Below are positions 18,335-40,639 of a DNA stretch of 64,000 bases, piece after piece. Below the pieces are notes generated by a model. It was given only the letters and a program-made list of their open reading frames with translations, made no database searches and had not been told where the DNA came from. The stretch is taken from contig JBMNOG010000004.1 of the NCBI GenBank assembly GCA_050942955.1, forward strand, positions 4,431-68,430, in the 5' to 3' direction. Position numbers and translations under genes: made by a program. The number at the start of each line of letters is the position of its first letter. Within the stretch, counting starts at the first letter, position 1. This DNA is from Patescibacteria group bacterium. GTDB lineage: Bacteria; Patescibacteriota; Microgenomatia; UBA1400; UBA1449.

Positions 18335-18458
18335 CAAAGTATTTCTCTCTCTGTTACTTAGTTCGGTATTTTTAGTATTTTTGTTGTAACTTCAATTTTA
18401 CTCAAGAAAAAGTGTTCCAGACCCAGATGGCGCTATTGATAAATCTCCAAAGCTAGTA

Positions 18459-24851: not shown

Positions 24852-25091
24852 ATGCCCTACAAAAGCAATTCTGAACTACCTGAATCAGTGCGCAAGTCTT
24901 TGCCTGAACACGGACAAGACATTTATCGTGAGGCCTACAATAGCGCCTGGGAGCAGTACGATGAGCCTGAGGAGAGACGGGGTGGTAGGTCAAGAGAAGA
25001 AACAGCTCATGCCATTGCTTGGAGCGCTGTAAAAAAAGAATATGAAAGAGTCACGCAAGGCAAGTGGGTAAAAAAAAGAAGACTAACCTAG
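24852..25091 (+). CDS. chaB: ChaB-family protein (cation transport regulator-like)
   Basis: MPYKSNSELPESVRKSLPEHGQDIYREAYNSAWEQY...REETAHAIAWSAVKKEY aligns almost residue-for-residue with E. coli ChaB. Confidence 0.85.
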   Translation: MPYKSNSELPESVRKSLPEHGQDIYREAYNSAWEQYDEPEERRGGRSREETAHAIAWSAVKKEYERVTQGKWVKKRRLT

Positions 25092-25708
25092 CGGCTTTCG
25101 TTCCGAGGTTTCACTCTTTTATACCTTTCCAAAATTAGTTGCTTATTCCTTTCAAAAATGGAGCGTAAGCGATCATCATCTTTAGTTTCATCATCGTCTT
25201 TATCTTCCTCTTTTTTCTCATCTCTTTCTTCCCATACTCCTCGGGTTCTTTCATCATCCTTGCTTTCTTCCTTTTTCTCTGCTTTTTCACCAGCTTTAGT
25301 TGCTTCCTTTTCAGTTTCTACCCTAACAGTTTCCTGGATTACGTCAGACTTCTTTACTGGTTTTGGCGGCACTTCAAGACCTTCAACTTCATCTTTAATT
25401 TCTGGCAGAGTGGATTTTTCCGGATTGCCACTTATAGCTACACGTACGGTATCTGAAAACTGTCTGAGAGGGTACAGGGAGTCGCCTGGTTTTGCAACAG
25501 AGGCTCTTACATAAGTCAGACCTCCACCGATTAACAGTGCAATAAGAATCATAAAAGGTATAGCTACCCGAAGGAAGGGATGTCTGAAAGTCACTTGATC
25601 TTCCAAAAGTGGAACTATGTCTTCCCAGCTCTGCTTAACTTTTCCAGGAGTAACAGTTATAGAAAGGTAATCCTGTTTTCGTCCTTTAAGGTAAGTATCA
25701 GTTTTCAT
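25088..25708 (-). CDS. putative anti-sigma factor (single-TM, acidic C-terminal domain) cotranscribed with the ECF sigma
   Basis: Overlaps the upstream sigma gene by 11 nt. TM LRVAIPFMILIALLIGGGL. Very Glu/Asp/Lys-rich tail. Confidence 0.5.
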   Translation of the reverse strand: MKTDTYLKGRKQDYLSITVTPGKVKQSWEDIVPLLEDQVTFRHPFLRVAIPFMILIALLIGGGLTYVRASVAKPGDSLYPLRQFSDTVRVAISGNPEKSTLPEIKDEVEGLEVPPKPVKKSDVIQETVRVETEKEATKAGEKAEKKEESKDDERTRGVWEERDEKKEEDKDDDETKDDDRLRSIFERNKQLILERYKRVKPRNESR

Positions 25709-26240
25709 ACGTATATTCTTTTATATATTGTCGCATTTTCTTTAAAATCCGGTGAACTCTGACTCTAACAGCTCCTTCTTCCTTATTAACAACTTGGGCA
25801 ATCTCATTGAAAGATAACTCTTCAAAATATCGTAAAACAATTAACAGTTTTTCAAACTCCTTCAAAAACCCCATGGTTTTATACACTACTGCTTTTTGTT
25901 CCTTAGAAAGAAGGGTTTCCTGGATATCATCATCTGAGGGAATGGTTTCGGCCGTATCTAGCGCTAAGTTTTTCTTCTTACGCTTAAAATCGATAACAGC
26001 GTTTCTGGCAACAGCGAAGATAAAAGCCTGGAGCGTTCCCTTCTGAACATCAAAAGAAGATAAGGATTTCCAGGTCTTTAAAAATGTATTCTGCGTTAGA
26101 TCAGAGGCAGTTTCCGGATCATACACCATATAGTAGATAAACCGGTAAATCCGCTTGTAGAAGGTCTCGTAAATCTGTCCAAACGCCTGTTTGTCTCCAT
26201 GCTTAGCCAAGATGACCAAAGCGTCTAGTTCTTCTGACAT
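25698..26240 (-). CDS. ECF-type RNA polymerase sigma factor (sigma-70 regions 2 and 4)
   Basis: Region 2 FYKRIYRFIYYMVYDPETASDLTQNTFLKTWKSL. Region 4 LIVLRYFEELSFNEIAQVVNKEEGAVRVRVHRILKKMR. Confidence 0.85.
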   Translation of the reverse strand: MSEELDALVILAKHGDKQAFGQIYETFYKRIYRFIYYMVYDPETASDLTQNTFLKTWKSLSSFDVQKGTLQAFIFAVARNAVIDFKRKKKNLALDTAETIPSDDDIQETLLSKEQKAVVYKTMGFLKEFEKLLIVLRYFEELSFNEIAQVVNKEEGAVRVRVHRILKKMRQYIKEYTYEN

Positions 26241-26336
26241 AGCGGCATTATACCTTACTAACTATGTAATACGTGCAAGTCCCGGTTTTGTAACATTATT
26301 GCTTGGTCTTCGTTATATGTAGTGAAAGGAGATATT

Positions 26337-27017
26337 ATGAAAAATCTTACTATCACGTTTCTCACGTTTTTGTTTGTTGTTATCCTTGGTACCCAAATTG
26401 CGCTTGCCAAAGAGGGTTCTGGAGGAAAAGATAAAAAACCTGACCTTAAAGCTAAAATTACTACTCAGCTTGAACATGTCAGTCAATTTCTGAAAGCAAA
26501 GGTTAACAATGAAACCTTTGACATTCAGGGTGAGATAGAGTCTGCATCTGAGACAAGTTTTATTGTTGGCGGCCAGACTATTATCGTTGATCCTACCATG
26601 GTTGCCAAATTTACCCAAAAAGGCATTCTGGAAGAGGGGCAAAGAGTAAAAGTCAGAGGGATTATTACAGAAGATGGATACTTAGCTCAAGATATTAATG
26701 TTATCGGCACCGGACAGGGCAGGTATCAATTTAAGTTTGAAAACGGCGTTGTCGTCACCCCTACTCCGGATGAGAATGCCGATGATGATACACAGGATGC
26801 TACCCCAAGTGCATCACCCAGCCCTACCCCTCAAGGCAGCCTTAATTCGGGTACAGATGGTCTTATCGGAAGCCTGAACTCCGACACTGAAACTACTACC
26901 GGTAGCCTTGATTCGTCTACAGAAAGAGTAACAACCAGAATTAGAATCTCAGGAACTCTAGAAAGGGTTAGGGCTTTTATCGATAATTTATTTTCGTACT
27001 TTAGTCTTAGCTTTTAA
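26337..27017 (+). CDS. secreted protein with Ser/Thr/Asp-rich C-terminal region, hypothetical
   Basis: AAGGAG SD. Signal peptide MKNLTITFLTFLFVVILGTQIALA. Confidence 0.5.
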   Translation: MKNLTITFLTFLFVVILGTQIALAKEGSGGKDKKPDLKAKITTQLEHVSQFLKAKVNNETFDIQGEIESASETSFIVGGQTIIVDPTMVAKFTQKGILEEGQRVKVRGIITEDGYLAQDINVIGTGQGRYQFKFENGVVVTPTPDENADDDTQDATPSASPSPTPQGSLNSGTDGLIGSLNSDTETTTGSLDSSTERVTTRIRISGTLERVRAFIDNLFSYFSLSF

Positions 27018-27070: not shown

Positions 27071-27392
27071 TTTGACTTTAGGTAGAATACCTGTTTTGAG
27101 CCTTTTCTAATAGTTGAAACGTTAAATAAAATTAAAAAAGAGATAACAAAAATAACTAAAACTAGCATTAATACAACAGTTTTGTTTTTACTCTTTTGCC
27201 TTTTTGCTATCATTCTCTACATAGTATAACTTTGAGGATAGACTTACCATGTAGCGGTAAAAGATAGGAAAGCAATTGTTATTGTCCTGGTATTTTGGAT
27301 CTTGCTATTAGTTAAAAAATAGCTACAGCAAATAAATTTTGACAGTTTATTCAGCTTAACAAAAATAACAGCTATCCTTTACAATAAGCAGT

Positions 27393-28310
27393 ATGAGAGT
27401 TGTCCACTTAAATGTAACCAGTCTCTTCTCTTCACTCCTACAGGGTGAGAAATACCCTCTCTCTCTTGAGAAGACCAATACCATAGCTAATCCCCATACT
27501 ATTGAGGCAGTAACGCTAACTCCAAGATCAAAAGTAAACGATGATAATCTTCAAAACTTGCCGTCTCTCAAACTTATTGTCACCAGAAGTGTCGGAGTTG
27601 ATCACATAGATAAAAATGCGTGTAAAAAGCGTAACATTGCGGTGTATCACATAGAAGACTACGGCGCCTTCAATATTGCTGAACATACCCTAGCGCTTCT
27701 CCTATCCGGAACCAGAAACATTGTTAGATCACAGAGAAACATTAACGCTGGAAAGTTCGAGCACGAGAATTTAGCTGGATTTGCTTTAAGGAACAAAACA
27801 GTAGGCATTATTGGTACAGGTAAAATTGGGCTTGAATTCATTAAGCTCCTTAAACCGTTTGACGTAAACGTTATTGCCTATGATATTTTTGAAAATTATG
27901 AAGCCCAAAAGCGTCTGGGTTTTACCTATACCACATTTGAATCGCTACTTAAGGAAAGTGATGTTATCAGTCTGCACGCACCCCTAACCCCAAAAACCCG
28001 CCACATGGTAAATCAAAAGGCTATCCAGCTCATGAAGGAAGATGTCATCCTCGTCAATACCGCCAGGGGTGATTTAATAAACACTCAAGACCTTGTGAAA
28101 AATATTGTAAAGTTTAGATTTGTTGGACTTGACGTTTTAGAAGACGAAGCCAGCTTTAGCAAAAGCCATCCGCTATTAGCTTTTCATAACGTACTCATCA
28201 CCCCTCATATGGCTTATCTTTCTGAGTACTCCCTGAAAAAGATTTGTGAGGAAACAGAGAAGTGTATCACCAGCTTCATGAATAACAACTCCAGTGGACG
28301 AATCGTTTAG
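27393..28310 (+). CDS. D-isomer-specific 2-hydroxyacid dehydrogenase family protein
   Basis: NAD-binding GIIGTGKIGLEF and the catalytic-domain pattern. 305 aa. Confidence 0.8.
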   Translation: MRVVHLNVTSLFSSLLQGEKYPLSLEKTNTIANPHTIEAVTLTPRSKVNDDNLQNLPSLKLIVTRSVGVDHIDKNACKKRNIAVYHIEDYGAFNIAEHTLALLLSGTRNIVRSQRNINAGKFEHENLAGFALRNKTVGIIGTGKIGLEFIKLLKPFDVNVIAYDIFENYEAQKRLGFTYTTFESLLKESDVISLHAPLTPKTRHMVNQKAIQLMKEDVILVNTARGDLINTQDLVKNIVKFRFVGLDVLEDEASFSKSHPLLAFHNVLITPHMAYLSEYSLKKICEETEKCITSFMNNNSSGRIV

Positions 28311-28380
28311 TTTCTGATTACTAAGTTCTTACCCCTTCATTACTCCATTTTCACGCCCTCACTTTAGCTTGAGTTGACTA

Positions 28381-29469
28381 TTGGTGATTATGAAGGCTAA
28401 CATACTTTCAAACCTCAAGAAAATTGCTATTCTGCGAGCTAATGCCCTCGGAGATTTTATTTTCGCCCTTCCGGCACTAAAAGCACTTAGAGAGACGTAC
28501 CCTAAAGCTGAACTTGTATATCTGGGTAAACCCTGGCACGAAACATTCCTCAAAGACAGAAAAGAGATTGTAGATAGAGTTGTCACTATTCCAGTAAGTT
28601 ATGGAATAAGAGAGGAAAACGGGAAAAGGGAAAATACTAAGGAACTGGAATCATTTTTCTGTGGAATGCAGAAAAAGAAATTTGACATTGCCATCCAGCT
28701 TCATGGAGGCGGCAGAAATTCAAACCCATTTGTCTCTAAACTAGGCGCACAGATAACAATTGGTTCTCAAACTTTTGATGCTTTAGGTTTAGACACAACC
28801 ATTCCATATATTTATTACCAAAACGAGTATTTACGATGTCTGGAGATCGTGGCCTTAGTTGGTGCAAAAACAAAAGAGATCGTTCCTCATCTCAACGTTA
28901 GACCTAAAGATGTAAATGAGGCTAGGGAAGTTATCGGAGGTATGTCTAAACCCCTAGTTATCCTACACCCTGGGGTAAACGACCTAAGAAGACAGTGGCC
29001 TGAAGAACGTTTTGCACAAGTCGGAGATTCACTTGCAAAAAAGGGTTTAAGTATTGCTCTTACCGGCACTAAAAATGAAGAAAAGCTGGTAAGCAACGTG
29101 ATAAGGAAAATGCAGATAAAGCCTCTAAATCTCTGCAGCAAACTGACAATCAATGGATTGACTGGTTTGTTAAAAATTGCAAAACTTATTATCAGCAATG
29201 ACACAGGACCACTTCATCTTGGAGCAGCCATAGGTACAAAAACAGTGGGAATCTACTGGTGCGGTAACCGCATCAACGGCGGACCGATAACAATTGCCAC
29301 AAATACTCCCTTAATTTCCTGGTTAACTCGCTGCCCCTTATGTGGAACAGACATGACAAAGTTAATAGTTAAGAAAAGTCATGAATGCAGCCACAACGTC
29401 TCGTTTGTTAAAGATGTATCTGTCAAAACTGTATATGAAGCGGCTAACTACCTTCTAGCTGAAGAATAA
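28381..29469 (+). CDS. glycosyltransferase family 9 (heptosyltransferase-like) with a C-terminal Cys/His cluster
   Basis: N-terminal ILRANALGDFIFALPALKAL is the GT9 signature. C-terminal CPLCGTDMTKLIVKKSHECSH. Confidence 0.75.
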   Translation: MVIMKANILSNLKKIAILRANALGDFIFALPALKALRETYPKAELVYLGKPWHETFLKDRKEIVDRVVTIPVSYGIREENGKRENTKELESFFCGMQKKKFDIAIQLHGGGRNSNPFVSKLGAQITIGSQTFDALGLDTTIPYIYYQNEYLRCLEIVALVGAKTKEIVPHLNVRPKDVNEAREVIGGMSKPLVILHPGVNDLRRQWPEERFAQVGDSLAKKGLSIALTGTKNEEKLVSNVIRKMQIKPLNLCSKLTINGLTGLLKIAKLIISNDTGPLHLGAAIGTKTVGIYWCGNRINGGPITIATNTPLISWLTRCPLCGTDMTKLIVKKSHECSHNVSFVKDVSVKTVYEAANYLLAEE

Positions 29470-29596
29470 AACTATTGCTTGTAGTTTGAGACACCGAAAG
29501 ATAAGTTTTGGTTGATAAAACAATTAGTTGGTTCCTCTTCCTCATCTCTTACACACCTTTTATATATCCCTCATTTTCCAACTTTACTCTTTGGCT

Positions 29597-30634
29597 ATGA
29601 AGATAACCAGAGTTTTTAGCAGAGATCAAAAACTTAAAATCGGAGTATTTAGAGCGTTGTACTTAGGCGACCTACTCTGTAGTGTGCCAGCATTTAAGGC
29701 TATAAGAAAAACCTTTCCTGAGGCCAATATCACTTTAATATCTCTACCTTGGGCAGCTGAGTTTGCAAAGCGTTTTGCCTATATTTTCAACAGTTTTATC
29801 AAGTTTCCCGGCCTTCCTGGACTACCTGAGCAGCCAGTTAATCCCAAAAAATCTCTGGAATTTTTTCAGCATTTGCAAAATGAACAGTATGACCTTCTTT
29901 TGCAAATGCAAGGTAACGGTAGTATTGTCAACACTGTTTTACCTCTAGCTGACGCTACTGCCATGGCCGGTTTTTACATGGCGAGAGGTTTTCGGCCCAA
30001 CCGCTACTTTTTCATGAGGTATCCAAACAACCTTTCTGAAGTTGAGAGATACTTAAAACTTACTCACTACCTTGGAATGGATTGTGAAGATAAACAACTG
30101 GATTTTCCTCTCTATCAAAGTGATTATAGGGAATTTGGATTACTTGAGGCACAGCTTGGGTTATCAAAAGAAAGGTATGTCTGTATTCACCCTGGAGCGA
30201 GAGAGAAATTAAGACGCTGGTCCCCTCTTAATTTTATTACCGTCGCAGATGAGATAGCAAGCAAAGGTTACAAGATAGTTTTAACTGGAACTTCAAGTGA
30301 AAAAGGGTTAACAAAGGCCATTGCCCATTCCATGCGTTACCCAGCTCTGGATTTAGCAGGAAAAACTTCTCTTGGAGCTCTGGCTCTTACCATTAAGAAT
30401 TCTCAGTTAATGGTCTGCAATGATACCGGTGTTTCCCATCTTGCAGCTGCCCTATCTCACCCTACAGTTGTCATCTCTCTCTCTAAAGATAAGAAGCGCT
30501 GGAAACCAGCAAACAGTTCCCTGCACCAGTTTGTGCCTGGGGAGACAAACAACGCACTTGAAGAAGTACGCTTCCGGATTTTCAACTTTTTAAGTACTCA
30601 AAGCAGCTATCCTGCCCTCACGCTCTATTCATAA
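29597..30634 (+). CDS. glycosyltransferase family 9 (heptosyltransferase-like)
   Basis: KIGVFRALYLGDLLCSVPAFKAIRKTFPEANITLISLPWAAEF is the GT9 N-domain. Start chosen at MKITRVF (track ORF from 29528). Confidence 0.75.
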   Translation: MKITRVFSRDQKLKIGVFRALYLGDLLCSVPAFKAIRKTFPEANITLISLPWAAEFAKRFAYIFNSFIKFPGLPGLPEQPVNPKKSLEFFQHLQNEQYDLLLQMQGNGSIVNTVLPLADATAMAGFYMARGFRPNRYFFMRYPNNLSEVERYLKLTHYLGMDCEDKQLDFPLYQSDYREFGLLEAQLGLSKERYVCIHPGAREKLRRWSPLNFITVADEIASKGYKIVLTGTSSEKGLTKAIAHSMRYPALDLAGKTSLGALALTIKNSQLMVCNDTGVSHLAAALSHPTVVISLSKDKKRWKPANSSLHQFVPGETNNALEEVRFRIFNFLSTQSSYPALTLYS

Positions 30635-30653
30635 CCTAAAGGAAAGGGTGCGT

Positions 30654-31664
30654 ATGGTATCAGGAAATTTATCAAAACTCAGAATCTTTACCTGGCATAT
30701 CCATGGGAGCTACCTATACTACCTTTCACACTGTCCATGCAACTTTTATATTCCCAAAGACTCAAATAATAAAGATGGATATATCGGCAAAACAAGTAAT
30801 TTTCCCTGGAGAGAAAAAGTCCATGAAATTCTGAAAACTGAAGTGAAGACTCAGGATTTTGACATAATTCTTTTCCAGTCCAAAAAAAATTATTTGAAAG
30901 ATCAATACGATATTTTGTCTCCACACCAAAGAATGTTGCCAAAGATTTTCTTGGAACATGATCCGCCACAAAAACATCCGACTAACACTAAACATGTAGT
31001 TGACGATCCCAATGTTGTTATTGTTCATGTTACAGACTTTAACAATCTCATGTGGGACAACAACCTCTCGCCTACCGTAGTTATTAAGCACGGAGTAAAA
31101 ATTCCCACAAATGTCCGGTACAACGGTCATCTACAAAAGGGTGTCGTCGTTATTAATAATATTGTTAAAAGAGGCCGAAGATTAGGGCTAGACATTTTCG
31201 AGAAAGTCAGGAAGCAAATTCCTCTTGATATTGTCGGGATGAACTCAGAGTTAGTCGGGGGACTAGGCGAAGTTCCTTTTATAAAACTTCCTCAGTTTAT
31301 TTCCCATTATCGTTTCTTTTTTAACCCCATCAGATACACAAGTCTAGGCCTCTCTGTCCTTGAAGCTATGGCTGCTGGTATGCCGGTTGTTGGTCTAGCA
31401 ACCACAGAAGTACCTTTGGTTTTGGAAAACAACGTAACTGGTTTTACCCACACAAACACCGATTTCCTGATTGAAAAGATGTATCAACTCCTAAACAACC
31501 CTACATTGGCCAGGAAGCTATCAGGCAACGCCAAACGCTTTGCAAACACACACTACAACATAGTTAAGTTTACACAAAACTGGCTCAACTTGTTTACTTC
31601 CATTACAAAGAAAACAAGCCGAACAGTTAGGCCACTTTCAAACAGCTTAGCTGTGAGTGTATGA
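30654..31664 (+). CDS. glycosyltransferase, GT4-like (GT-B C-terminal domain)
   Basis: SLGLSVLEAMAAGMPVVGLATTEVPLVLENNVTGF is the GT4 motif. Confidence 0.6.
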   Translation: MVSGNLSKLRIFTWHIHGSYLYYLSHCPCNFYIPKDSNNKDGYIGKTSNFPWREKVHEILKTEVKTQDFDIILFQSKKNYLKDQYDILSPHQRMLPKIFLEHDPPQKHPTNTKHVVDDPNVVIVHVTDFNNLMWDNNLSPTVVIKHGVKIPTNVRYNGHLQKGVVVINNIVKRGRRLGLDIFEKVRKQIPLDIVGMNSELVGGLGEVPFIKLPQFISHYRFFFNPIRYTSLGLSVLEAMAAGMPVVGLATTEVPLVLENNVTGFTHTNTDFLIEKMYQLLNNPTLARKLSGNAKRFANTHYNIVKFTQNWLNLFTSITKKTSRTVRPLSNSLAVSV

Positions 31665-33580
31665 CTATGATGAACATTGCTTTTATCAGTGAACACGCCT
31701 CTCCCCTTGCTGCACTTGGCGGTGCCGATAGTGGCGGTCAAAACGTCTATGTCGCAAAGCTAGCATACCAGTTGGGGGAAATGGGCCACAAAGTTGATAT
31801 CTTTACCCGCTGGGACAATAAAGCTTTGCCCTTATCGGTAAACCTAACTCCGAATGTCAGGGTAATTCATGTCAAAGCCGGTCCGAAAACTTTCATACCT
31901 AAGGAAGAACTCTTGCCACACATGAACTCTTTTACTCAAAGCATGCTTTCTTTTCTTAAGTACAGTCAGACAACGTACGATTTTGTCCATGCCCACCACT
32001 GGATGTCTGCCCTAGTTGCTGCAGATATAAAACAAGAGCTGAAAATTCCGTTTGTAGTCACCTTCCATGCCCTGGAAAAAGTACGACTAAAATACCAAAA
32101 AGAGGTAGCTTCACTTCAAGCTAAACGAATTAATGTTGAAGAAGACGTGATCAAAAAGTGTAACTACGTAATTGCCGAATGCCCCCAGGATAGAGACGAT
32201 CTCATTACCCTTTACAATGCTGATCCAAGAAAAATTGTTACTATTCCTGCTGGGTTTGATCAGAAAGAGTTCTATCCGATTGACCGGATACTGGCTTGCA
32301 GCGTCCTCAAACTTGATCCCAGTATAAAGTATGTCCTGGCACTCAGTAGAATGGTACCCAGAAAAGGAATTGAGACTATTGTCCGCGGCTTTGCCCGATT
32401 TTTGAAAGATAATCAAAGCAGTATGAAACTGCTTATTGTTGGCGGTGAGTCTGATTTGCCTGACCCAGAGTACACTCCGGAAATCGCCAGGCTGACCGGT
32501 ATTGCCCGAGATGAAAACATTGAAGAGTCTGTAATCTTTACCGGCAGAAAAGACAGATCAGTATTAAAGTACTTTTACAGTGTAGCTGAGGTGTTTGCTT
32601 CCACTCCTTGGTATGAACCTTTTGGCATAACGCCACTTGAAGCGATGGCATGTGGCGTGCCAGTTATTGGTACAAGAGTTGGAGGCATCAAGTTTACTGT
32701 AAAAGATAATGAGACAGGGTACCTTATTGAACCTCAAAAACCCCAACAGTTTACTAAAGCCCTAGAAGCACTTGTATCAAACCCATATAAGCTCCGGATT
32801 TTTAAAGAAAACGGGGTAAAACACGTCAATGAGTACTTTACATGGGAAAAAGTAGCCAGACAAATGCAGGCGTTGTACCAAAAAGTACTTCCTCAGATGA
32901 CTGTGAGTGATACCTTTCTTCCCTTACCTGAAAAAGTAGTTGAGATAGCTTTCAGTGAATTCACCCAACTTTTAAGTAAACCGATGAGAAGTCTTAAAGA
33001 AAACATTCTTTCCGCAGCAAAGATAATTGAGGAAACATTTGAACACAACGGCAAGGTTATAGTTTGTGGTAACGGCGGCAGCGCAGCTGATGCCCAGCAC
33101 TTTGCAACAGAACTAGTAGGTAGGTTTCAAATTCCTCAAAGACCGGCTTTCCCCGTAATGGCGTTAACAGCCGATTCAACTTTTCTTACAGCCTGGTCAA
33201 ACGATGTTTCCTTTAGAGAGGTGTTCTCAAGACAAATTGAGGCCTTCGGGCAAGAAAGAGATACCGTTATTGGCATCAGTACTAGCGGCAATTCTGAAAA
33301 TGTTGTTAAGGCATTTGAAGTTGCTCACGATAAAGGTATGTTGGCTATTGGTATCTTAGGCAAAGATGGTGGTGAGGCTGCAGAAGAAGCAGATGTATCT
33401 GTGATTGTACCCTCGCAAAACCCTCAACGCATTCAGGAAACTCATCTACTCATATTGCATACGTTGGTAGAAATTGTTGAAAACTATCTACTCAGCAAAG
33501 AACTTCAACAACGTAGCAAGGGTATGGGTAGAAAAAAATCAACACAAAAAATAGTGAAAGGAGAAATATGGAAAATATAA
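31661..33580 (+). CDS. gmhA: fusion protein: N-terminal GT4 glycosyltransferase (sucrose-phosphate-synthase/MshA-like, GGQNVYV) + C-terminal sedoheptulose-7-phosphate isomerase GmhA (SIS domain)
   Basis: N-terminus ASPLAALGGADSGGQNVYVAKLA. C-terminal ~190 aa (KVIVCGNGGSAADAQHFATELVGRF...GISTSGNSENVVKAFEVAHDKGMLAIGILGKDGG...IQETHLLILH) aligns along its length with E. coli GmhA. Confidence 0.8.
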   Translation: MTMMNIAFISEHASPLAALGGADSGGQNVYVAKLAYQLGEMGHKVDIFTRWDNKALPLSVNLTPNVRVIHVKAGPKTFIPKEELLPHMNSFTQSMLSFLKYSQTTYDFVHAHHWMSALVAADIKQELKIPFVVTFHALEKVRLKYQKEVASLQAKRINVEEDVIKKCNYVIAECPQDRDDLITLYNADPRKIVTIPAGFDQKEFYPIDRILACSVLKLDPSIKYVLALSRMVPRKGIETIVRGFARFLKDNQSSMKLLIVGGESDLPDPEYTPEIARLTGIARDENIEESVIFTGRKDRSVLKYFYSVAEVFASTPWYEPFGITPLEAMACGVPVIGTRVGGIKFTVKDNETGYLIEPQKPQQFTKALEALVSNPYKLRIFKENGVKHVNEYFTWEKVARQMQALYQKVLPQMTVSDTFLPLPEKVVEIAFSEFTQLLSKPMRSLKENILSAAKIIEETFEHNGKVIVCGNGGSAADAQHFATELVGRFQIPQRPAFPVMALTADSTFLTAWSNDVSFREVFSRQIEAFGQERDTVIGISTSGNSENVVKAFEVAHDKGMLAIGILGKDGGEAAEEADVSVIVPSQNPQRIQETHLLILHTLVEIVENYLLSKELQQRSKGMGRKKSTQKIVKGEIWKI

Positions 33581-34293
33581 AGGGAAAAGTTGCGTTGGTT
33601 ACAGGCGGCAGCCAGGGGCTTGGCGCAGCTATTGTTGAAGCTTTAGCCAAACATGGAGTTACGACAATTATTGGAGACATTAAAGATCGGCAGGCAGAGA
33701 TAGTACGAAAACGTTTATCTAAAGAAGGCAGTAAGGTTTTTAACTATCATCTTGATGTTAGCAGTGAAATCAGCACTACCGAAGTTATCAATAAAATTCA
33801 GAAAGAGTTTGGGCGTTTGGATATCTTAGTAAATAACGCCGGCATTGATGTAACTAAACCTGTTGATGAACTCACTATTGAGCAGTGGGATCGGGTTCTG
33901 GGAGTAAATCTTAGAGGTCCGTTTATATTGTCAAAACTTGCTCTCGAAGCAATGAAGAAGCAAAAAGGCGGACATATTGTTAACATTACCTCAACAGCAG
34001 CTAAGCGCGCTTGGGCCAATGCCTCAGCTTACCACGCCAGCAAATGGGGACTTCTGGGTATGAGTCACTGCTTCTTCTGTGAAGCCAGAAAGTTCAATGT
34101 TAAAGTATCTGCTGTCGTATCCGGAGGCATGAGAACTCGATTTATTCTTGACCGTTTTCCTGAAGTAGACCCAAACACCTTACAAGACCCAATACATGTT
34201 GCTAAAACAGTATTATTTATTCTTAAACAAGCAGATGAAACTGTCATTCCTGAAGTTATGGTTTTGCCGCTTAACGAAACCTCTTGGCCTTGA
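33568..34293 (+). CDS. short-chain dehydrogenase/reductase (classical SDR)
   Basis: GKVALVTGGSQGLGAAI and catalytic YHASK. 241 aa. Confidence 0.85.
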   Translation: MENIKGKVALVTGGSQGLGAAIVEALAKHGVTTIIGDIKDRQAEIVRKRLSKEGSKVFNYHLDVSSEISTTEVINKIQKEFGRLDILVNNAGIDVTKPVDELTIEQWDRVLGVNLRGPFILSKLALEAMKKQKGGHIVNITSTAAKRAWANASAYHASKWGLLGMSHCFFCEARKFNVKVSAVVSGGMRTRFILDRFPEVDPNTLQDPIHVAKTVLFILKQADETVIPEVMVLPLNETSWP

Positions 34294-34310
34294 GCCGGAA
34301 AAGGTTGACT

Positions 34311-34901
34311 ATGAGAAAACTACCAAAAAAAGCCATATTTTTGGACAAGGATGGGACACTTATACCTAATATTCCCTATAATGTAGATCCTGAACGTATC
34401 GCTTTAAACCCTGAAGTAGGAAGATCATTAAAATCCCTTCAGGATGCAGGATTTCTCATAGTTGTAATCACAAACCAGTCAGGTATTGCGCGAGACTTTT
34501 ATTCTGAAAAAAATCTTATTCCTATAGAAAAAAAGCTAAAAAAACTACTGGTTGATTTTAACGTAAACCTTAGTGGTTTTTACTACTGTCCCCACCATCC
34601 ACTGGGGACTATCCCTTACAACATAGTGTGCGAGTGCCGCAAACCAAAACCGGGACTGCTTTTTAGGGCAGCACGCAATCTGTATATAGACCTATCCAGT
34701 TCCTGGATGATTGGTGATACGTGGAGCGATATCGGAGCAGGTTTTAATGCTGGTTGCTTCACAGTTTTATTATCACCTTACCCGAACACGATGACTCCTG
34801 AAAGCAAGTTCACTCCTGATTTTAAAGCTAAAAACTTTAGCGAAGCTGCCTCAATTATCTTAGAAACTCAGGAGATATTGGTAAATACCAGTAAACTATG
34901 A
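34311..34901 (+). CDS. gmhB: D-glycero-D-manno-heptose 1,7-bisphosphate 7-phosphatase (HAD family)
   Basis: AIFLDKDGTL...VVITNQSGIARDFYS...YYCPHHP...CECRKPKPGLL...IGD aligns with E. coli GmhB, including the Cx(D/E)CRKP motif. Confidence 0.8.
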   Translation: MRKLPKKAIFLDKDGTLIPNIPYNVDPERIALNPEVGRSLKSLQDAGFLIVVITNQSGIARDFYSEKNLIPIEKKLKKLLVDFNVNLSGFYYCPHHPLGTIPYNIVCECRKPKPGLLFRAARNLYIDLSSSWMIGDTWSDIGAGFNAGCFTVLLSPYPNTMTPESKFTPDFKAKNFSEAASIILETQEILVNTSKL

Positions 34902-36400
34902 AAGTTACTGATCAAAAAGCTCTGGATAGAATTAAAAAAGTTAATGTTGCCGTGTTGGGAGAGGCTATTTTGGATGTATTTATTGAAGGGGTTTCACAGC
35001 GGCTTTCCCGAGAAGCTCCTGTTCCTATTGTAGAAGTTGAATCAAAAAAAGCAGTCGCCGGTGGCGCTGCAAACACCGCCGTGAACACGACCACCCTAAG
35101 CGCCCACACCTATTTTCTGTCCGTTGTCGGAAAGGACAAAGAAGGTGAAAGCATAAAAACGATCTTGAGTAAGTATGGAGTGGAAACAAGATATGTAGTC
35201 GAAGACACAAGTAGGAAGACACTTTCAAAACAGAGAGTTGTTGCAAACAGTCAAGAACTGGTACGTTATGACCAAGGTACAACTTCTCCAATCTCTACCG
35301 AGGCAGAATTAGCATTAATTCAAAATCTAAAAAAAATTCTTTCGTTAATTGATGTTCTGATAGTCTCTGACTACGGTTATGGTGTTATCACCTCTCAGGT
35401 TTTAAAAACTTTATCAGAAATTAGAAATCAGAAAGAGATTATCATAGCAGTCGATTCTAAGAATCTGCGCAACTATAAGGAAGTCAAACCAACGCTGATT
35501 AAACCTAATTACATAGAGGTAGTAGAAAACTTGGGATTAACACCGGTTTCAGACAGTCTTGAAAGATTCAAGCAAGTTAGAGCCAGGAAAAAGAATCTCT
35601 TTGAATGCTGTGATCCTTCAATTATTGCGGTTACCTTGGATAAAGACGGAGCCTTGTTATTTAAAGACAGGCGTTACGTGTACCGAACCTATGCTCGGCC
35701 GGTTAAACAGTCAAACTCTATTGGAGCCGGCGATACGTTTATTAGCGCATTTACCCTTGGACTAGCTGCAGGCATGTCTTTATCAGCCTCAGCTGAGTTG
35801 GCAGCTGCGGCTAGCCAGGTTGTTGTTGATAAAACTGGCACAGCTCCATGCTACCTTAACGATTTAGAAATCCACAGTGAACACAATAAAAAAATCGTGT
35901 CAAATATAAACGAACTGCTGCTTATCTTGGACAAAACCAGAAAAGAAGGTAAGCAGATCGTGTTTACCAACGGCTGCTTTGACATTATTCACTCCGGACA
36001 TGTAACCTACTTAAGCCGGGCAAGAGAGTTAGGAGATGTGCTGGTTGTAGGTGTTAATAGTGACAAGAGTGTCCGCCATTTAAAGGGCTGGGAAAGACCA
36101 GTTAACCCTCTTCCCGATAGACTTAAAGTGTTAACAGGTCTAAGCAGTATAGACTACGTCATCCCGTTTGAAGAATATACCCCTATTAAACTAATTAAAA
36201 CCATAAAACCTCACATCTTTGTAAAAGGCGGAGACTATACTCTTAAAACTCTTCCGGAAGCCCCGTTTGTAAAGAAGTACGGTGGGAAAGTTAAAATCTT
36301 ACCGTATATTGAAGGCAAATCAACCACAGGTATTATTGAAAAAATTCAAAGAGTATTTCTTGATAGATTTTTTTTCACTCATAATATTAGACCGAGATAA
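34898..36400 (+). CDS. hldE: bifunctional D-beta-D-heptose 7-phosphate kinase / D-beta-D-heptose 1-phosphate adenylyltransferase
   Basis: N-terminal ribokinase-like domain (NVAVLGEAILDVFIEG..., GAGDTF). C-terminal cytidylyltransferase-like domain (IVFTNGCFDIIHSGHVTYLSRARELGDVLVVGVNSD). Confidence 0.9.
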   Translation: MKVTDQKALDRIKKVNVAVLGEAILDVFIEGVSQRLSREAPVPIVEVESKKAVAGGAANTAVNTTTLSAHTYFLSVVGKDKEGESIKTILSKYGVETRYVVEDTSRKTLSKQRVVANSQELVRYDQGTTSPISTEAELALIQNLKKILSLIDVLIVSDYGYGVITSQVLKTLSEIRNQKEIIIAVDSKNLRNYKEVKPTLIKPNYIEVVENLGLTPVSDSLERFKQVRARKKNLFECCDPSIIAVTLDKDGALLFKDRRYVYRTYARPVKQSNSIGAGDTFISAFTLGLAAGMSLSASAELAAAASQVVVDKTGTAPCYLNDLEIHSEHNKKIVSNINELLLILDKTRKEGKQIVFTNGCFDIIHSGHVTYLSRARELGDVLVVGVNSDKSVRHLKGWERPVNPLPDRLKVLTGLSSIDYVIPFEEYTPIKLIKTIKPHIFVKGGDYTLKTLPEAPFVKKYGGKVKILPYIEGKSTTGIIEKIQRVFLDRFFFTHNIRPR

Positions 36401-36409
36401 ATCAAGATT

Positions 36410-37534
36410 ATGAAAACTGGTTCCTGGGAAAATGTAAAAAAGGTACTCGCTGTCAGGCTTGATAGCATGGGAGACCTTCTGATGACTACACCCGCCCTAA
36501 GAGCTATAAAAGAGTCACTACACACAAAAAAACTTGTTTTGTTAACATCACGATCGGCCAGTTTAGCAACCCAATTTATTCCTGAGATTGATCAAACAAT
36601 CGTTTTTGATGCTCCCTGGGTGAAAACCCAAAGCAACAATATTGCTGCCAATTACATCTCAAACACCATTGCAAAACTGAAGAAGGAACAGTTTGATGCT
36701 GCTATTATTTTCACTGTCTGTAGCCAAAATCCGCTTCCTGCTGCTTTGCTATGCTATATGTCCCAAATACCACTTCGCTTAGCATACTGCCATGAAAACC
36801 CTTATGCCCTCCTAACTCACTGGCGGCCTGATCCTGAACCGCAGTTTTTTATCCGCCATGAAGTTGAAAGACAATTGAGTTTAGTAGCAAGTGTCGGATA
36901 CACAGCCTCGAATAAAACCCTATCGCTTACCCTAACTCAAACGGCACACAATTCAGTTATAGCAAAACTGAAAACACTAAAAGTTGATCTGCATATACCC
37001 TGGGTGGTCTTACATCCGGGTGTTTCTGAGGAAAGACGTCAGTACCCTTTGAAAAATTTTTGTAAGGCTCTTAAAGAGTTACAAAAACTCACTGATTTTC
37101 AGATTTTGGTTACCGGAAATGCGGCAGAAACTGAACTATCAAGGCAAGCAGCGCAGGAAATTGGCAGAAAAGCTGTTTCACTGGGAGGACAACTAACTTT
37201 AGAGGAGTTTGCTGCTCTCATTGCTCTTTCTCAGCTACTTATAACTAACAATACCGGCCCTGTTCATATAGCTGCCGCAGTTGGAACTCCTGTTGTAGAT
37301 CTATACGCTAATACTAACTCTCAGCACACTCCCTGGATGGTACCAAATCGGGTTCTAATATTTGATGTTCCCTGTAAAGCCTGTGAAAGGGGTATATGCT
37401 CTACCGGACCTCATCATATTCAAAAACACGTAAAACCTAGGGAGATCGTTAAAGCCTCCTTAGAACTTTTGTTACCAAAGTTTAAAACCGAGTTACTATA
37501 TGGCAAAAGTAGATGTTTTAATTCCAACACGTAA
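36410..37534 (+). CDS. glycosyltransferase family 9 (heptosyltransferase-like) with a C-terminal Cys cluster
   Basis: VLAVRLDSMGDLLMTTPALRAIKESL is the GT9 signature. C-terminal VPCKACERGICSTGPHH. Confidence 0.75.
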   Translation: MKTGSWENVKKVLAVRLDSMGDLLMTTPALRAIKESLHTKKLVLLTSRSASLATQFIPEIDQTIVFDAPWVKTQSNNIAANYISNTIAKLKKEQFDAAIIFTVCSQNPLPAALLCYMSQIPLRLAYCHENPYALLTHWRPDPEPQFFIRHEVERQLSLVASVGYTASNKTLSLTLTQTAHNSVIAKLKTLKVDLHIPWVVLHPGVSEERRQYPLKNFCKALKELQKLTDFQILVTGNAAETELSRQAAQEIGRKAVSLGGQLTLEEFAALIALSQLLITNNTGPVHIAAAVGTPVVDLYANTNSQHTPWMVPNRVLIFDVPCKACERGICSTGPHHIQKHVKPREIVKASLELLLPKFKTELLYGKSRCFNSNT

Positions 37535-38297
37535 CCGGAGTGAAGCTCTTACTGCCACTCTAACCAGTCTTTACTTTCAAAGCTTTTCAGATTTTCGGGT
37601 AATTATTTCTGATCAGTCAGATAACTTTATTGCTTCTGAAACCATAAAAACAATCTTTCGAATGTATAGTGCCAACAAAGAAAAAGTGACTTTATTGCAC
37701 AACCTTCCTCGTAAAGGCATTGCTCAACAACGCCAGTTTCTCCTAAATACAACAACGGCAGAGTACTGTCTTTTTCTTGATGATGATTTAATCCTTGAAC
37801 CCTACGTACTTACCAACATGTTTAAAGCCATAACAGAGGAAAAGTGTGGTTTTGTCGGTATGGCCCCAATTGGCTTGAGTTTTAAAAAGGATATCCGGCC
37901 CAAGGAGCAGTCAGTTGAGTTCTGGAGTTGCGGTGTTAAACCGGAAGCAGTAACTCCAGTAAGCAAAAAGTGGCAGCGGCACAAACTTCACAACGCCGCA
38001 AATATTTACCATGTTGCAAAAAAATTTAAACTAAAGCCAGAAAATCAGCAAAAATATAAAATTGCTTGGGTGGGCGGTTGTGTTTTGTATGACACCTCCA
38101 AGCTAAAGGTATGCGGAGGGTACTCATTCTGGGATAAAGTCCCAAAGGTAACTTGCGGCGAAGATGTTTTGGCTCAACTTAGAGTCATGAAGAAATTTGG
38201 AGGCTGTGGTCTTCTCCCTTCAGGCGCGTACCACCAAGAGCTACCGACAACTTTGATTAACAGAAAACATGATGCACCCTTCCTACTTGGTATTTAG
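37500..38297 (+). CDS. glycosyltransferase family 2
   Basis: VDVLIPTRNRSEALTATLTSLYFQSF...ISDQSDN and DDD are the GT2 DxD region. Confidence 0.75.
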   Translation: MAKVDVLIPTRNRSEALTATLTSLYFQSFSDFRVIISDQSDNFIASETIKTIFRMYSANKEKVTLLHNLPRKGIAQQRQFLLNTTTAEYCLFLDDDLILEPYVLTNMFKAITEEKCGFVGMAPIGLSFKKDIRPKEQSVEFWSCGVKPEAVTPVSKKWQRHKLHNAANIYHVAKKFKLKPENQQKYKIAWVGGCVLYDTSKLKVCGGYSFWDKVPKVTCGEDVLAQLRVMKKFGGCGLLPSGAYHQELPTTLINRKHDAPFLLGI

Positions 38298-39094: not shown

Positions 39095-40639
39095 TTAGCG
39101 CTGTCCTTTAAAGAACGACTGAACCTCGTCAAACTGAGGACGGCTGGAAAAGTCGTTGTTAATTAGTGCTTCATTACCACCCATGCCCATATGCCAGTAA
39201 TTGAAGCCAACAACACCTGGGCGATTGCAGGCACCCATACTGTCTATAACCTGACGCTCTACATCACCTGAACCGGCACTTCCCCATTCACCGATAATGA
39301 TGGGTACTCCGGGATACCTGGACTGAAGTTCATCCAAACCTTGCTTCATGGTTTGACCGATGAGTTCAGGGTAGTGGTCGATAGTAATATTTCCCATCTT
39401 CTGGACTGTGGTATCTTCCAAGATACCATTCCAATCAGGGTTATTACTGCCCCAAGCGATAAAACCGTCAAAACCGTAGTAGCCGGTTTTTACTTTACCA
39501 CCCAAACCTATTTCAGAGAAAGCCTGGTTGGAAACATCAATAGCATCCCTCAGCCACTGGTTGAAGTGCTTAATATCTCTGAACTGGCAAACACCCTGCG
39601 CGCAGTAGGTCATATTACCAATACCACCATTCTGCGGTTCCGGTGCGGGGGTAAAGATATCTCCCTCAGCAAAGAAATCCCGATGAGCTTTTATGTAATC
39701 CCGGGTTTTTGCTAAATAGTCAGTGCTGTTGTTTTTGGGAGTATCGTAGATACCTTCAAATGCCAAAAACATGTGACGGTGCCACACTTTCAGACCCCTT
39801 GAGCGGATAACATCCACCCAGGTTTTAGTGTATGAAACAGCATCGCCGCAAGCCGGATTGTCATATGGCGTTTCAACAGCTACATGGGTTACACCCAGCT
39901 CTTTAGCCTTATCCACCCAGCGTTCAATATACCCATGGTCAGGCATATTACAAATCCTATCCTTAGTCTCCTTCATTGAGGAAACACTCTGGATTTCCCA
40001 GCTTTTACCAGTCAAAGGAACCGGAGCGGGGGTTGGGGTTGGTGTAGGCAGCGGCTCAGTTGTTGGCTGAGGAGTTGGCTCAGTTGTTGGAACTGGAGTC
40101 GGATCCGGAGTAGGGCTTGGGGGCGGATCCTCTGAAACCGCTTTACTGCCCAGCAGTTTAGCGCTGGTAATATCTACTTTAAACTCACCACGGTTCCAGA
40201 TTCGCACATGGAATGTCCCTACCCGTTCGTTTGTTTTTAACCCGGGAAAATCTGCAAGCGGAATAGTAACAGTCTGTTCCCCGTTTTTGCAGTTTTCTCC
40301 GTAGTTAGAAAGAGACACATAGTGCCATTCACCACCATAGGGCTGATCGAAAATCAGGGCTGATGCATCTCCTCCCAGCAAACAAGTGCCGTGGAGATTG
40401 TATGTAACTTCTAAGGCAGTTTTGTTGTTTAAGGAGTTGGACCTAATCGGCTGGTAACGCTCCGAAGCGCCATCTCGGCCGCTTAAGTTCCAGGGACGTT
40501 TAAGGAGCTCAGTGCTTTCTTCAGCTTTTACTGAAGAAATACTCCCTGAAAAGATTGTGACTAACATACCGGCAAGCGCCAGTAGAGACAGGTATTTTCT
40601 ACCGTGTCTTTTGAAAGTCGTTGAAAGACTTTGCGACAT
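39095..40639 (-). CDS. secreted glycoside-hydrolase-like TIM-barrel protein (clan GH-A-like) with N-terminal beta-domain and PT-rich linker. The start is uncertain.
   Basis: Signal peptide KYLSLLALAGMLVTIFSGSISSVKA. Linker PSPTPDPTPVPTTEPTPQPTTEPLPTPTPTPAPVP. Catalytic-domain motifs IIGEWGS and GGNEAL. The track ORF extends to 40852, but that 5' region looks non-coding. Confidence 0.55.
   Translation of the reverse strand: MSQSLSTTFKRHGRKYLSLLALAGMLVTIFSGSISSVKAEESTELLKRPWNLSGRDGASERYQPIRSNSLNNKTALEVTYNLHGTCLLGGDASALIFDQPYGGEWHYVSLSNYGENCKNGEQTVTIPLADFPGLKTNERVGTFHVRIWNRGEFKVDITSAKLLGSKAVSEDPPPSPTPDPTPVPTTEPTPQPTTEPLPTPTPTPAPVPLTGKSWEIQSVSSMKETKDRICNMPDHGYIERWVDKAKELGVTHVAVETPYDNPACGDAVSYTKTWVDVIRSRGLKVWHRHMFLAFEGIYDTPKNNSTDYLAKTRDYIKAHRDFFAEGDIFTPAPEPQNGGIGNMTYCAQGVCQFRDIKHFNQWLRDAIDVSNQAFSEIGLGGKVKTGYYGFDGFIAWGSNNPDWNGILEDTTVQKMGNITIDHYPELIGQTMKQGLDELQSRYPGVPIIIGEWGSAGSGDVERQVIDSMGACNRPGVVGFNYWHMGMGGNEALINNDFSSRPQFDEVQSFFKGQR

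Follow-up and report, generated by a model that had tools for sequence, protein, structure and literature searches.

A conserved ADP-heptose and GT9 gene cassette in a Patescibacteria genome and other phyla: candidate pathway for a heptose glycan outside LPS

What would a bacterium in which lipopolysaccharide (LPS) is not expected do with ADP-heptose and a set of GT9 glycosyltransferases? Both ADP-heptose and the GT9 enzymes are all but equated with Gram-negative LPS, and ADP-heptose strongly stimulates innate immunity. The question is raised by ten genes at positions 27393-38297 of a 64-kb stretch of a Patescibacteria contig (JBMNOG010000004.1; "the window" below means this whole stretch), where enzymes of ADP-heptose synthesis are encoded together with three GT9 proteins, two GT4 proteins and a GT2. 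Genes for the synthesis of nucleoside diphosphate (NDP)-heptose are far more widespread than LPS, and their purpose has been left open (PMC11461863, a commentary on Tang et al. 2024). The locus links this question to a definite set of genes, a conserved cassette of soluble enzymes that would be easy to clone. Its carriers include Candidate Phyla Radiation (CPR) bacteria and Chloroflexi, in which LPS is not expected, as well as culturable cyanobacteria and Bacteroidota. With culturable carriers and soluble enzymes, the product should be identifiable by straightforward enzymology and genetics.

The firmest part of our answer, predicted from the genes, is that the operon makes ADP-D,D-heptose and that its canonical but non-Waa GT9 enzymes, two GT4s and GT2 work within the cytoplasm to assemble a glycan which contains heptose and is distinct from LPS core. 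The best explanation of the cassette is that it is neither an LPS core cluster nor a protein heptosyltransferase system of the TibC type. Beyond this, we propose a self-contained cytoplasmic cassette in which a sugar phosphate, probably heptose-7-phosphate, serves as primer and is lengthened with ADP-heptose into a soluble heptose-rich glycan, and we give this proposal a probability of about 0.4. While the supply of ADP-heptose and the chemistry of GT9 enzymes are known, what appears to be new is their use outside LPS around a GmhA fusion of a synthase resembling sucrose-phosphate synthase (SPS) and MshA, accompanied by a GmhB-type phosphatase.

ADP-heptose supply in a CPR host

Gene calls were taken from a listing of open reading frames (ORFs), and identities were assigned by Pfam and NCBIfam scans. 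The ten genes are co-directional, and the features of the block are as follows.

27339-27385, plus strand: two overlapping sigma-70-like promoter matches, TTGACA-16-AAAAAT and TTAACA-18-TACAAT, each 10/12
27393-28310, plus strand: D-isomer 2-hydroxyacid dehydrogenase (glycerate/PGDH/glyoxylate-reductase-like), PF02826 E 5e-53
28381-29469, plus strand: GT9a, PF01075 E 4e-26, with a C-terminal CPLCG...HECSH knuckle
29597-30634, plus strand: GT9b, a core cassette GT9 without a Cys cluster, PF01075 E 6.5e-31
30654-31664, plus strand: GT4s, a short GT4 (retaining GT-B) and core cassette member, of which Pfam matches the C-lobe only
31661-33580, plus strand: GT4-GmhA fusion, with an SPS/MshA-type GT4 at residues 1-415 and GmhA at about 427-613 (TIGR00441 E 2e-57)
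33568-34293, plus strand: classical short-chain dehydrogenase/reductase (SDR) of 241 amino acids (aa), accessory, PF00106 E 4e-54, best NCBIfam match the generic PRK07326
34284-34901, plus strand: GmhB-type HAD-IIIA phosphatase, TIGR00213 135.2 bits
34898-36400, plus strand: bifunctional HldE, PRK11316 E 1e-112, residues 7-485 aligned to 3-473 of 475
36410-37534, plus strand: GT9c, a core cassette GT9, WaaF-like by profile hidden Markov model (HMM), PF01075 E 8e-29, with a C-x2-C-x4-C...HH knuckle
37500-38297, plus strand: soluble GT2, accessory, PF00535 E 7e-15, without a transmembrane (TM) segment

The preliminary description of this DNA had listed a 2-hydroxyacid dehydrogenase, three GT9 proteins, GT4, a GmhA fusion, GmhB, HldE and GT2, and the scans confirm that list with coordinates essentially unchanged; its count of two GT4 proteins is borne out by GT4s and the GT4 half of the fusion. 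Stop and start codons overlap at five junctions within the block, which we therefore regard as one operon. Such E-values and such a gene arrangement lie well outside what chance would give. The GC content of the operon is 0.40-0.415 against about 0.41 in the whole window, and by this measure there is no compositional sign of recent transfer. The two overlapping matches just upstream of the first gene are a weak candidate for the operon promoter: promoter-like sites in the region are not enriched (19 against 24.7 expected from shuffled sequence), and the scan for promoters and terminators together found no enrichment over shuffled sequence either. For GT9b, the longest ORF begins at a TTG at 29528, and we judged the ATG at 29597 to be the more plausible start. 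In the ten proteins there is neither a convincing TM segment nor a convincing signal peptide.

Fusion residues 454-607 score 193.8 bits on TIGR00441, just below its whole-protein cutoff of 209.45, and GmhA structures in the PDB match the fused domain at about 1e-44. Residues H480, E484, S540, T541, Q592 and H600 of the fusion, which we take to correspond to the catalytic H61, E65, S119, T120, Q172 and H180 of E. coli GmhA, are kept in 40-43 of the 44-48 sequences aligned there; given this conservation of its catalytic positions, the GmhA domain should be active. HldE is predicted by homology to be both a heptose-7-phosphate kinase and a heptose-1-phosphate adenylyltransferase. Its adenylyltransferase domain (rfaE_dom_II) scores 208.8 bits and passes the equivalog cutoff of 181.5, and its kinase domain (rfaE_dom_I) scores 239.8 bits against a cutoff of 345. 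The phosphatase is clearly GmhB-like in sequence: it passes the HAD-IIIA domain model and reaches its 135.2 bits on TIGR00213 against a cutoff of 149.6, with 136 bits on the beta-type model PRK08942 (cutoff 178) and 94.9 on the alpha-type NF050049.

The preliminary description had noted a classical SDR and no HldD. This holds across the 64-kb window, in which the 241-aa PF00106 protein is not joined by any Epimerase-type (extended SDR) ORF that could be HldD/RfaD. The donor is then expected to be D,D-heptose, since the 6-epimerase gene is missing from the window. A monoderm bacterium is known that uses D,D-heptose in a glycan other than LPS. The operon differs in several ways from the alpha/GDP route referred to in PMC9798254. 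In that route HddA, HddC and an alpha-specific GmhB lead to GDP-heptose, whereas the cassette has an HldE-type enzyme and a GmhB that scores higher on the beta-type model, and no S-layer or lipid-carrier genes are linked to it. HldE also lacks an Arg at the position five residues upstream of YIEGKSTT (motif definition from PMC11461863), and the motif thus gives no positive sign of CDP- or UDP-heptose synthesis.

The RuvB encoded in the window matches that of a metagenome-assembled genome labelled "Patescibacteria group bacterium" at 100% identity and is 75-80% identical to proteins of Candidatus Beckwithbacteria, and by this affinity the host is a Patescibacteria/CPR bacterium close to that group. 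CPR bacteria are predicted to have a Gram-positive-type envelope (PMC9166423, citing Meheust 2019), and the same paper notes ADP-heptose synthesis genes in passing in some CPR classes and assigns them no function. No lpx, kds, waaA, bam or lpt gene was found in the 64 kb. Consequently, the view that nothing in the window suggests an outer membrane or lipid A stands for the whole 64 kb, and the premise of a host without LPS is reasonable in light of both the RuvB affinity and the published prediction.

A cassette shared across phyla and its proposed pathway

To place the operon among its relatives, we compared gene neighbourhoods from a Chloroflexi metagenome-assembled genome (MAG), Oscillatoria, a CPR MAG and Parapedobacter, together with 80 metagenome loci. 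Cassette counts refer to the 30 loci with enough flanking DNA, and de novo clustering of ORFs to 84 loci. The compared loci have in common the order GT9b-GT4s-GT4(-GmhA)-[SDR]-GmhB-[HldE]-GT9c-[GT2], at 40-59% identity by tblastn. GmhB is present in 29 of the 30 loci, GT9c in 28, GT9b in 25, GT4s in 23, HldE in 17, SDR in 12 and GT2 in 7. GT9b orthologs adjoin the GT4 in 25/30, and the SDR follows the GT4 in 12/30, at 50-59% identity. The named carriers are the Chloroflexi MAG (locus L007), Oscillatoria sp. FACHB-1407 (L005), Parapedobacter composti (L001) and the CPR MAG (L003), along with dozens of metagenome contigs. Chloroflexi are generally held to be monoderm and free of LPS. Over its full length, the window GT2 shares 54% identity with the GT2 that occupies the corresponding position in the Oscillatoria cassette. 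The window copy has two extras, GT9a and the 2-hydroxyacid dehydrogenase; the dehydrogenase falls below every NCBIfam equivalog cutoff and, among the compared loci, is shared only by a copy from the same organism (L002). The preliminary description had argued for heptose glycosylation outside LPS; it did not foresee a cassette that crosses phyla and occurs in diderms as well.

Homologs of the GT4-GmhA fusion number in the hundreds, at roughly 50% identity. Their source labels name Chloroflexota (Anaerolineae, Dehalococcoidia, Chloroflexia and Limnocylindrales), filamentous cyanobacteria (Oscillatoria, Oculatella, Leptolyngbya and Floridanema), Omnitrophica, Patescibacteria and Parapedobacter. 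A search of genome contigs with the fusion protein returned one locus, that of Parapedobacter, and the window locus is also present in two Logan assemblies. In a rough tree of the fusion protein the branching is star-like and discordant with taxonomy, and the two CPR copies stand apart; lateral spread of the fusion would fit such a tree, although the tree is not robust. In the literature that we searched, we found no description of this cassette. The ebo cluster (PMC5133447), which we considered, is a different pathway based on sedoheptulose-7-phosphate.

Several versions of the cassette differ from the window copy. Beyond the cassette genes, the families that recur are a NodU/CmcH carbamoyltransferase (in 19 loci) and a membrane GT2 (in 17), each a feature of Bacteroidota-type versions; smaller recurrent sets include a double GT9, a PucR-like regulator and response regulators. 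In the Bacteroidota type (L001 16037-18725 and 17-19 metagenome loci, for example L062, L066, L067 and L069), the added carbamoyltransferase has 590 aa, the GT2 is about 325 aa long with C-terminal TM helices, the GT4 is often unfused and HldE is absent. This membrane GT2 is not an ortholog of the window GT2, to which it is 29% identical over 98 residues only. The Parapedobacter cassette has as neighbours an MscS-type channel, a PAS/GAF histidine kinase, a response regulator and a PLD-like protein, and no LPS genes. Cyanobacterial and related versions have a tandem double GT9 of about 700 aa downstream of the GT2, with Cys-rich motifs in both halves (L005 17660-19765; L013 10736-12895; L040; L046), and some of these versions have an ORF of 166-209 aa with no Pfam match between GT9b and GT4s. 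The Patescibacteria MAG locus L003 (GCA_021786105.1, 8059-12633) holds only GT9b-GT4s-GT4/GmhA-SDR; HldE, GmhB and GT9c are not adjacent, and at about 5 kb downstream there are genes for a separate NTP_transferase (303 aa) and a small HAD-like protein. Heptose may be activated by another route in this version, or the pathway may be a reduced one.

The cassette is arranged around the GT4-GmhA fusion and its GmhB-type phosphatase. SPS and MshA glycosylate a phosphorylated acceptor, and a phosphatase then acts on the product. The best PDB matches of the fusion GT4 are 6KIH (Thermosynechococcus TeSPS, 232 bits) and 3C48 (Corynebacterium MshA, 209 bits). In TeSPS, R105 and R178 hold the phosphate of sucrose-6-phosphate, H158 and E331 are catalytic and Q51 contacts fructose (PMC7264703). 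In that order, R105, R178, H158, E331 and Q51 align to K81, R156, H136, E319 and Q27 of the fusion, the chain index in the PDB alignment running 3 above the native number. An alignment of 20 sequences shows no variation at any of the five, and among family members from the loci they are kept in 74/77 (K81), 73/77 (R156), 76/77 (H136), 77/77 (E319) and 70/77 (Q27).

The GmhB-like gene is the one most tightly linked to the GT4, at 29/30 loci. An unfused GT4 occurs in 12 loci. Of these, 12/12 have the GmhB-like gene, which lies 38-122 bp downstream of the GT4 in 10/12, while GmhA is found within 10 kb in 0/12 and HldE in 2/12. Linkage of the phosphatase is closer to the GT4 than to the enzymes of nucleotide-sugar synthesis, a pattern which suggests that the phosphatase may also, or instead, act on the product of the GT4.

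From these observations we propose the following pathway. The SPS/MshA-type GT4 would transfer a sugar from a nucleotide sugar onto a phosphorylated acceptor. Since the GT4 is fused to GmhA, the acceptor would most plausibly be the GmhA product, the 7-phosphate of D-glycero-D-manno-heptose. The GT4 and the GmhB-like phosphatase would then form a synthase/phosphatase pair, as SPS does with sucrose-phosphate phosphatase (SPP) and MshA with MshA2, and the phosphatase would remove the 7-phosphate. A 1-O-substituted heptose-7-phosphate would resemble heptose-1,7-bisphosphate, the usual substrate of GmhB, which makes its recruitment chemically plausible. Heptose, donated by ADP-heptose, and other sugars would be added to the primer by GT9b, GT9c, GT4s, GT2 and, in the window copy, GT9a. 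As product we predict a soluble glycoside or oligosaccharide that is rich in heptose, for which a stress-protective or reserve role is only a guess. The ten proteins look soluble, and no lipid-carrier transferase, flippase, polymerase or ligase is conserved beside the cassette in the 84 loci, both of which support a soluble pathway; given that the cassette occurs in monoderm and diderm hosts, its acceptor must exist in both.

The closest models for such a pair are SPS/SPP and MshA/MshA2, with which the cassette shares the catalytic His and Glu, two basic positions for the acceptor phosphate and a phosphatase immediately downstream. We take mannosylfructose-phosphate synthase/phosphatase, like MshA/MshA2, to be comparable to the GT4-phosphatase pair. 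Unlike the SPS/SPP pairs, however, the cassette GT4 is fused to an isomerase that forms heptose-7-phosphate and not to an SPP-like domain, its phosphatase is of the HAD-IIIA GmhB type and not of the SPP type, and the pair is embedded among two or three GT9s and further transferases. These extra transferases point to an oligosaccharide rather than a disaccharide.

The second GT4 of the core, GT4s, is 55-62% identical to proteins of Cytophagales, Chitinophagales and Gammaproteobacteria and has more than 7,000 homologs at E<=1e-20. Its N-lobe is rich in His: H17, H19, E103-H104-D105, H116, H127 and H148 are invariant in 26 sequences from distant phyla, whose alignment has a mean column identity of 68%. 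This lobe, which no characterised GT4 matches by sequence, could be a metal site or an acceptor site that binds phosphate or acid. AlphaFold predicts a complete GT-B fold for GT4s (pLDDT 85.8), and the structures closest to this model are BshA, SPS, PglA and an MMP mannosyltransferase (TM 0.6-0.7), and also GlgM. These are generic GT4 neighbours only, and mostly soluble enzymes with small-molecule or sugar acceptors. The JGI label of GT4s, "glycosyltransferase involved in cell wall biosynthesis", is generic.

Several points weigh against the proposed pathway. The priming model is drawn from homology and gene linkage alone. K81 and R156 may also occur in GT4s whose acceptors are unphosphorylated; a profile-profile comparison of the two GT4 families aligned their C-lobes only. 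The GmhB beside the GT4 may be no more than the pathway's own phosphatase, retained in hosts that have no other. Five or six transferases exceed any known compatible-solute pathway. In the Bacteroidota versions, the additional membrane GT2 and carbamoyltransferase hint at a product associated with the envelope, and membrane steps could be encoded elsewhere in the genome. The GT9 family itself contributes a further difficulty, namely an Asn (GT9c) or, in many GT9b orthologs, a Cys at the heptose-contacting position equivalent to WaaC D261. The full claim of a new cross-phylum cytoplasmic pathway, in which heptose-7-phosphate is glycosylated, dephosphorylated and extended by non-LPS GT9s into a new class of soluble heptose oligosaccharides, is still doubtful.

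The cassette could instead be the cytoplasmic part of a pathway for a heptose glycolipid, lipoglycan or secondary cell-wall polymer, with the membrane acceptor, flippase and attachment encoded elsewhere. Its mix of two GT9s and a GT4 mirrors the WaaC, WaaF and WaaG of the LPS inner core (E. coli locus L089), and the window organism has sortase, LysM and PT-linker surface proteins. The JGI label, generic as it is, and the C-terminal-TM GT2 and carbamoyltransferase of the Bacteroidota versions point in the same direction; the LPS core of Pseudomonas contains a carbamoylated heptose. However, neither the operon nor the recurrent families include an initiating polyprenyl-phosphate transferase, a flippase or exporter, or a polymerase or ligase. 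Clustering of the 84 loci revealed no recurrent lipid-carrier transferase, flippase, polymerase, ligase or non-enzyme partner beside the cassette, and polyprenyl-phosphate transferase, Wzx/Wzy, ABC exporter, WaaL/LCP ligase and lipid-synthesis genes are likewise not conserved with it there. The soluble appearance of all ten window proteins, the membership of the signature GT4 in the soluble SPS/MshA group, the non-LPS neighbours in Parapedobacter and the very different envelopes of the hosts (CPR, Chloroflexi, cyanobacteria and Bacteroidota) also argue against it. The cell-wall or S-layer glycan of the preliminary description survives in this form, with no initiating phosphoglycosyltransferase, flippase, polymerase, ligase or conserved acceptor protein linked to the cassette here or in 80 related loci, and we consider an envelope glycoconjugate unlikely.

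A specialised metabolite is another candidate product. The cassette would then decorate an aglycone or make a heptose natural product, and the GT4-GmhA fusion would merely co-express a supply enzyme. Reduced-genome CPR bacteria rarely keep secondary metabolism, which counts against this idea. ADP-heptose is a precursor of septacidin in a Gram-positive bacterium, and in the septacidin and hygromycin B pathways of actinomycetes it is likewise made without LPS and for a non-LPS purpose (PMC9978623, PMC11461863). The variable tailoring genes (SDR, 2-hydroxyacid dehydrogenase, carbamoyltransferase and extra GT9s) and the lateral spread suggested by the star-like, non-taxonomic fusion tree would also suit a metabolite. 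In contrast to those pathways, the cassette has no linked aglycone or scaffold genes, spans at least 4 phyla rather than one producer lineage and has multiple GT9s. No polyketide synthase, nonribosomal peptide synthetase, terpene, cyclitol or nucleoside-modifying genes are linked in any locus, and for a cluster of that kind the core would be remarkably widespread and conserved, as the numbers for GT4s illustrate (more than 7,000 homologs at E<=1e-20; 55-62% identity across phyla). We find a metabolite pathway quite improbable.

If the priming model is true, it would add to the SPS/MshA family a new type of reaction with a heptose-phosphate acceptor, and to GmhB-type phosphatases and GT9 transferases a new biological role. 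If the product is indeed a soluble oligosaccharide, ADP-heptose and GT9 enzymes would have a physiological role independent of LPS in CPR bacteria, Chloroflexi, cyanobacteria and Bacteroidota.

The GT9 proteins compared with Waa and TibC

To what extent do the GT9 proteins resemble the heptosyltransferases of LPS? The best NCBIfam matches are WaaC for GT9a (76.5 bits, cutoff 185.3), WaaQ for GT9b (90.3 bits, cutoff 467) and WaaF for GT9c (TIGR02195, 116.8 bits, cutoff 134.6; residues 12-353 aligned to 2-337 of 339). None of the three reaches the WaaC, WaaF or WaaQ equivalog cutoffs, and GT9c on WaaF comes nearest. Because of this end-to-end alignment with the WaaF model, we assign a canonical GT9 N-lobe, with which the N-termini of the GT9s align from about residue 10. 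In a PDB sequence search their nearest solved relatives are 3TOV and WaaF or WaaC. The three proteins stand outside the E. coli Waa group, as far as can be told from a rough neighbour-joining tree that has no support values and takes its references only from E. coli MG1655 (WaaC, WaaF, WaaQ and WaaU): the four references form one group, and the window proteins fall elsewhere, in a GT9a+GT9b clade and a deep GT9c clade.

We take D13 of WaaC to be the catalytic Asp, and K192 and D261-T262 to be ADP-heptose-binding positions, with D261 in contact with the heptose. The D13 equivalent is kept in GT9a, GT9b and GT9c, and the K192 position aligns with an Arg in the window GT9s. The D261 equivalent is kept in GT9a and GT9b and is Asn in GT9c; among GT9b orthologs this position is Cys in 19/32 and Asp in 13/32. 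Such substitutions mean that not every cassette GT9 is necessarily a heptosyltransferase, and the donor sugar of the cassette GT9s may differ from that of the LPS heptosyltransferases.

These results bear on a further explanation of the locus, an ordinary LPS inner-core cluster with lipid A-Kdo (3-deoxy-D-manno-oct-2-ulosonic acid) present and diverged WaaC, WaaF and WaaQ. The gene set is superficially waa-like, and GT9c comes close to the WaaF model (116.8 against 134.6 bits). The inner-core pathway (GmhA/HldE/GmhB/HldD with WaaC/F/Q/G) indeed has the same supply enzymes, several GT9s with the catalytic Asp of WaaC and positions equivalent to K192, and GT4 partners. The cassette differs from it, however, in having no HldD and hence a D,D-heptose donor, in its CPR host, in the absence of lipid A and Kdo genes from the window, and in a GT4 that is of the SPS/MshA type fused to GmhA and not of the WaaG type. 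The host belongs to CPR bacteria, for which a monoderm envelope is predicted (PMC9166423), the 64 kb contain none of the lpx, kds, waaA, bam and lpt genes, the three GT9s lie under the equivalog cutoffs and outside the E. coli Waa group, and an identical cassette occurs in Chloroflexi (L007); an LPS core cluster is extremely unlikely.

The preliminary description had drawn an analogy between the Cys clusters of two GT9s and the TibC/AAH family, and suggested protein heptosylation on this basis. The clusters are present as quoted, with the motif C-x2-C-x14-H-x-C-x-H in GT9a and C-x2-C-x4-C..HH in GT9c. The one GT9a ortholog found is that of the Chloroflexi locus L007, which is 47% identical and shares the Cys/His motif. 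In GT9c, the motif is found in 17/40 orthologs as "DVPCxxCYxSxCPxGHHxC", and the remaining 23/40 have a Cys-free "DVPExxRSKNEV" segment; on this distribution, the GT9c cluster is an optional structural element.

As is predicted for the cassette GT9s, members of the BAHT family (TibC/AAH) are soluble, ADP-heptose-dependent GT-B enzymes, and TibC has a four-ligand metal knuckle near its C-terminus (PMC4358343). Its iron finger is a C-terminal-proximal insertion with C339, C342, C358 and C370, it has an N-terminal beta-barrel and a beta-hairpin thumb, and it prefers ADP-D,D-heptose as donor (PMC4358343). The spacing is C-x2-C-x4-C in the window against C-x2-C-x15-C-x11-C in TibC. The window has no N-terminal beta-barrel, thumb, autotransporter substrate or outer membrane to match, and the Cys motif is dispensable in orthologs. 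The BAHT model TIGR04414 matches only GT9b, which is free of the Cys cluster, at 27 bits against a cutoff of 200; it does not match the Cys-bearing GT9a and GT9c, and TibC is absent from the PDB sequence matches of the GT9s at E<=0.01. We rejected BAHT membership of the GT9s on this score, on the canonical N-lobe, on the different Cys spacing and on the optional motif.

The analogy behind protein heptosylation therefore failed, on the 27 bits with TIGR04414, the missing TibC match in the PDB, the missing beta-barrel and thumb and the 17/40 distribution of the motif. Even so, GT9s that O-heptosylate a surface or S-layer protein in the cytoplasm before export, in the manner of TibC/AAH, deserve consideration. 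TibC's preference for ADP-D,D-heptose (PMC4358343) would agree with the predicted donor, GT9a and GT9c do have C-terminal Cys/His knuckles, soluble enzymes would need no lipid carrier, and the organism has many secreted PT-linker proteins. There is, however, no autotransporter in the window, and neither a conserved candidate acceptor protein flanking the cassette nor any non-enzyme gene family kept beside it in the 84 loci. An SPS/MshA-type GT4 and a phosphatase would not be needed for protein glycosylation, the N-lobe is canonical rather than a TibC beta-barrel with thumb, and the Cys spacing is unlike that of C339/C342/C358/C370, with the motif missing in 23/40 GT9c orthologs. Together with the low TIGR04414 score, seen for the Cys-free GT9b only, and the lack of a PDB match to TibC, this makes protein heptosylation very improbable.

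Genes around the operon

The envelope clues named in the preliminary description are real.

6007-6459: LysM protein
16345-17529: sortase
39095-40852, minus strand: PT-rich-linker protein of 585 aa, with a C-terminal domain that has no Pfam match

Upstream, the operon is flanked by a 751-aa GH52/GH116-like protein with an N-terminal hydrophobic segment (22513-24768). This protein and the PT-rich-linker protein (39095-40852, minus strand) are large secreted or anchored proteins, and neither is conserved beside the cassette elsewhere. The GH52-like protein is not homologous to a 752-aa protein near the L003 cassette; with the two unrelated, there is no linked hydrolase.

Immediately upstream of the operon are an extracytoplasmic function (ECF)-type sigma factor (25698-26240, minus strand), a single-TM protein that is a candidate anti-sigma factor (25088-25708, minus strand) and, at 26322-27017, a DUF5666 protein that is secreted and has a tail rich in PT/S. 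The ECF sigma factor here, and the response regulators and PucR-like regulator beside other copies, suggest that expression of the cassette is conditional.

A second sugar block occupies 8166-14634, with a GT4 (8166-9281), a GDE_C/MGH1-like glycoside hydrolase (9373-10662) and two ABC exporter genes (11028-12794 and 12844-14634), which are 13 kb from the operon and in a different gene block. A 122-aa ORF in this block (10673-11041) overlaps the opposite-strand tRNA-Arg(tct) at 10730-10804 and is probably spurious. An AbiEii nucleotidyltransferase toxin is encoded at 19082-19852 (PF08843 1e-30), and the preceding ORF, of 195 aa and with no Pfam match, overlaps it by 4 bp. By sequence, 18498-19852 is probably an AbiE type IV toxin-antitoxin pair, located beside tRNA-Lys (18261-18335).

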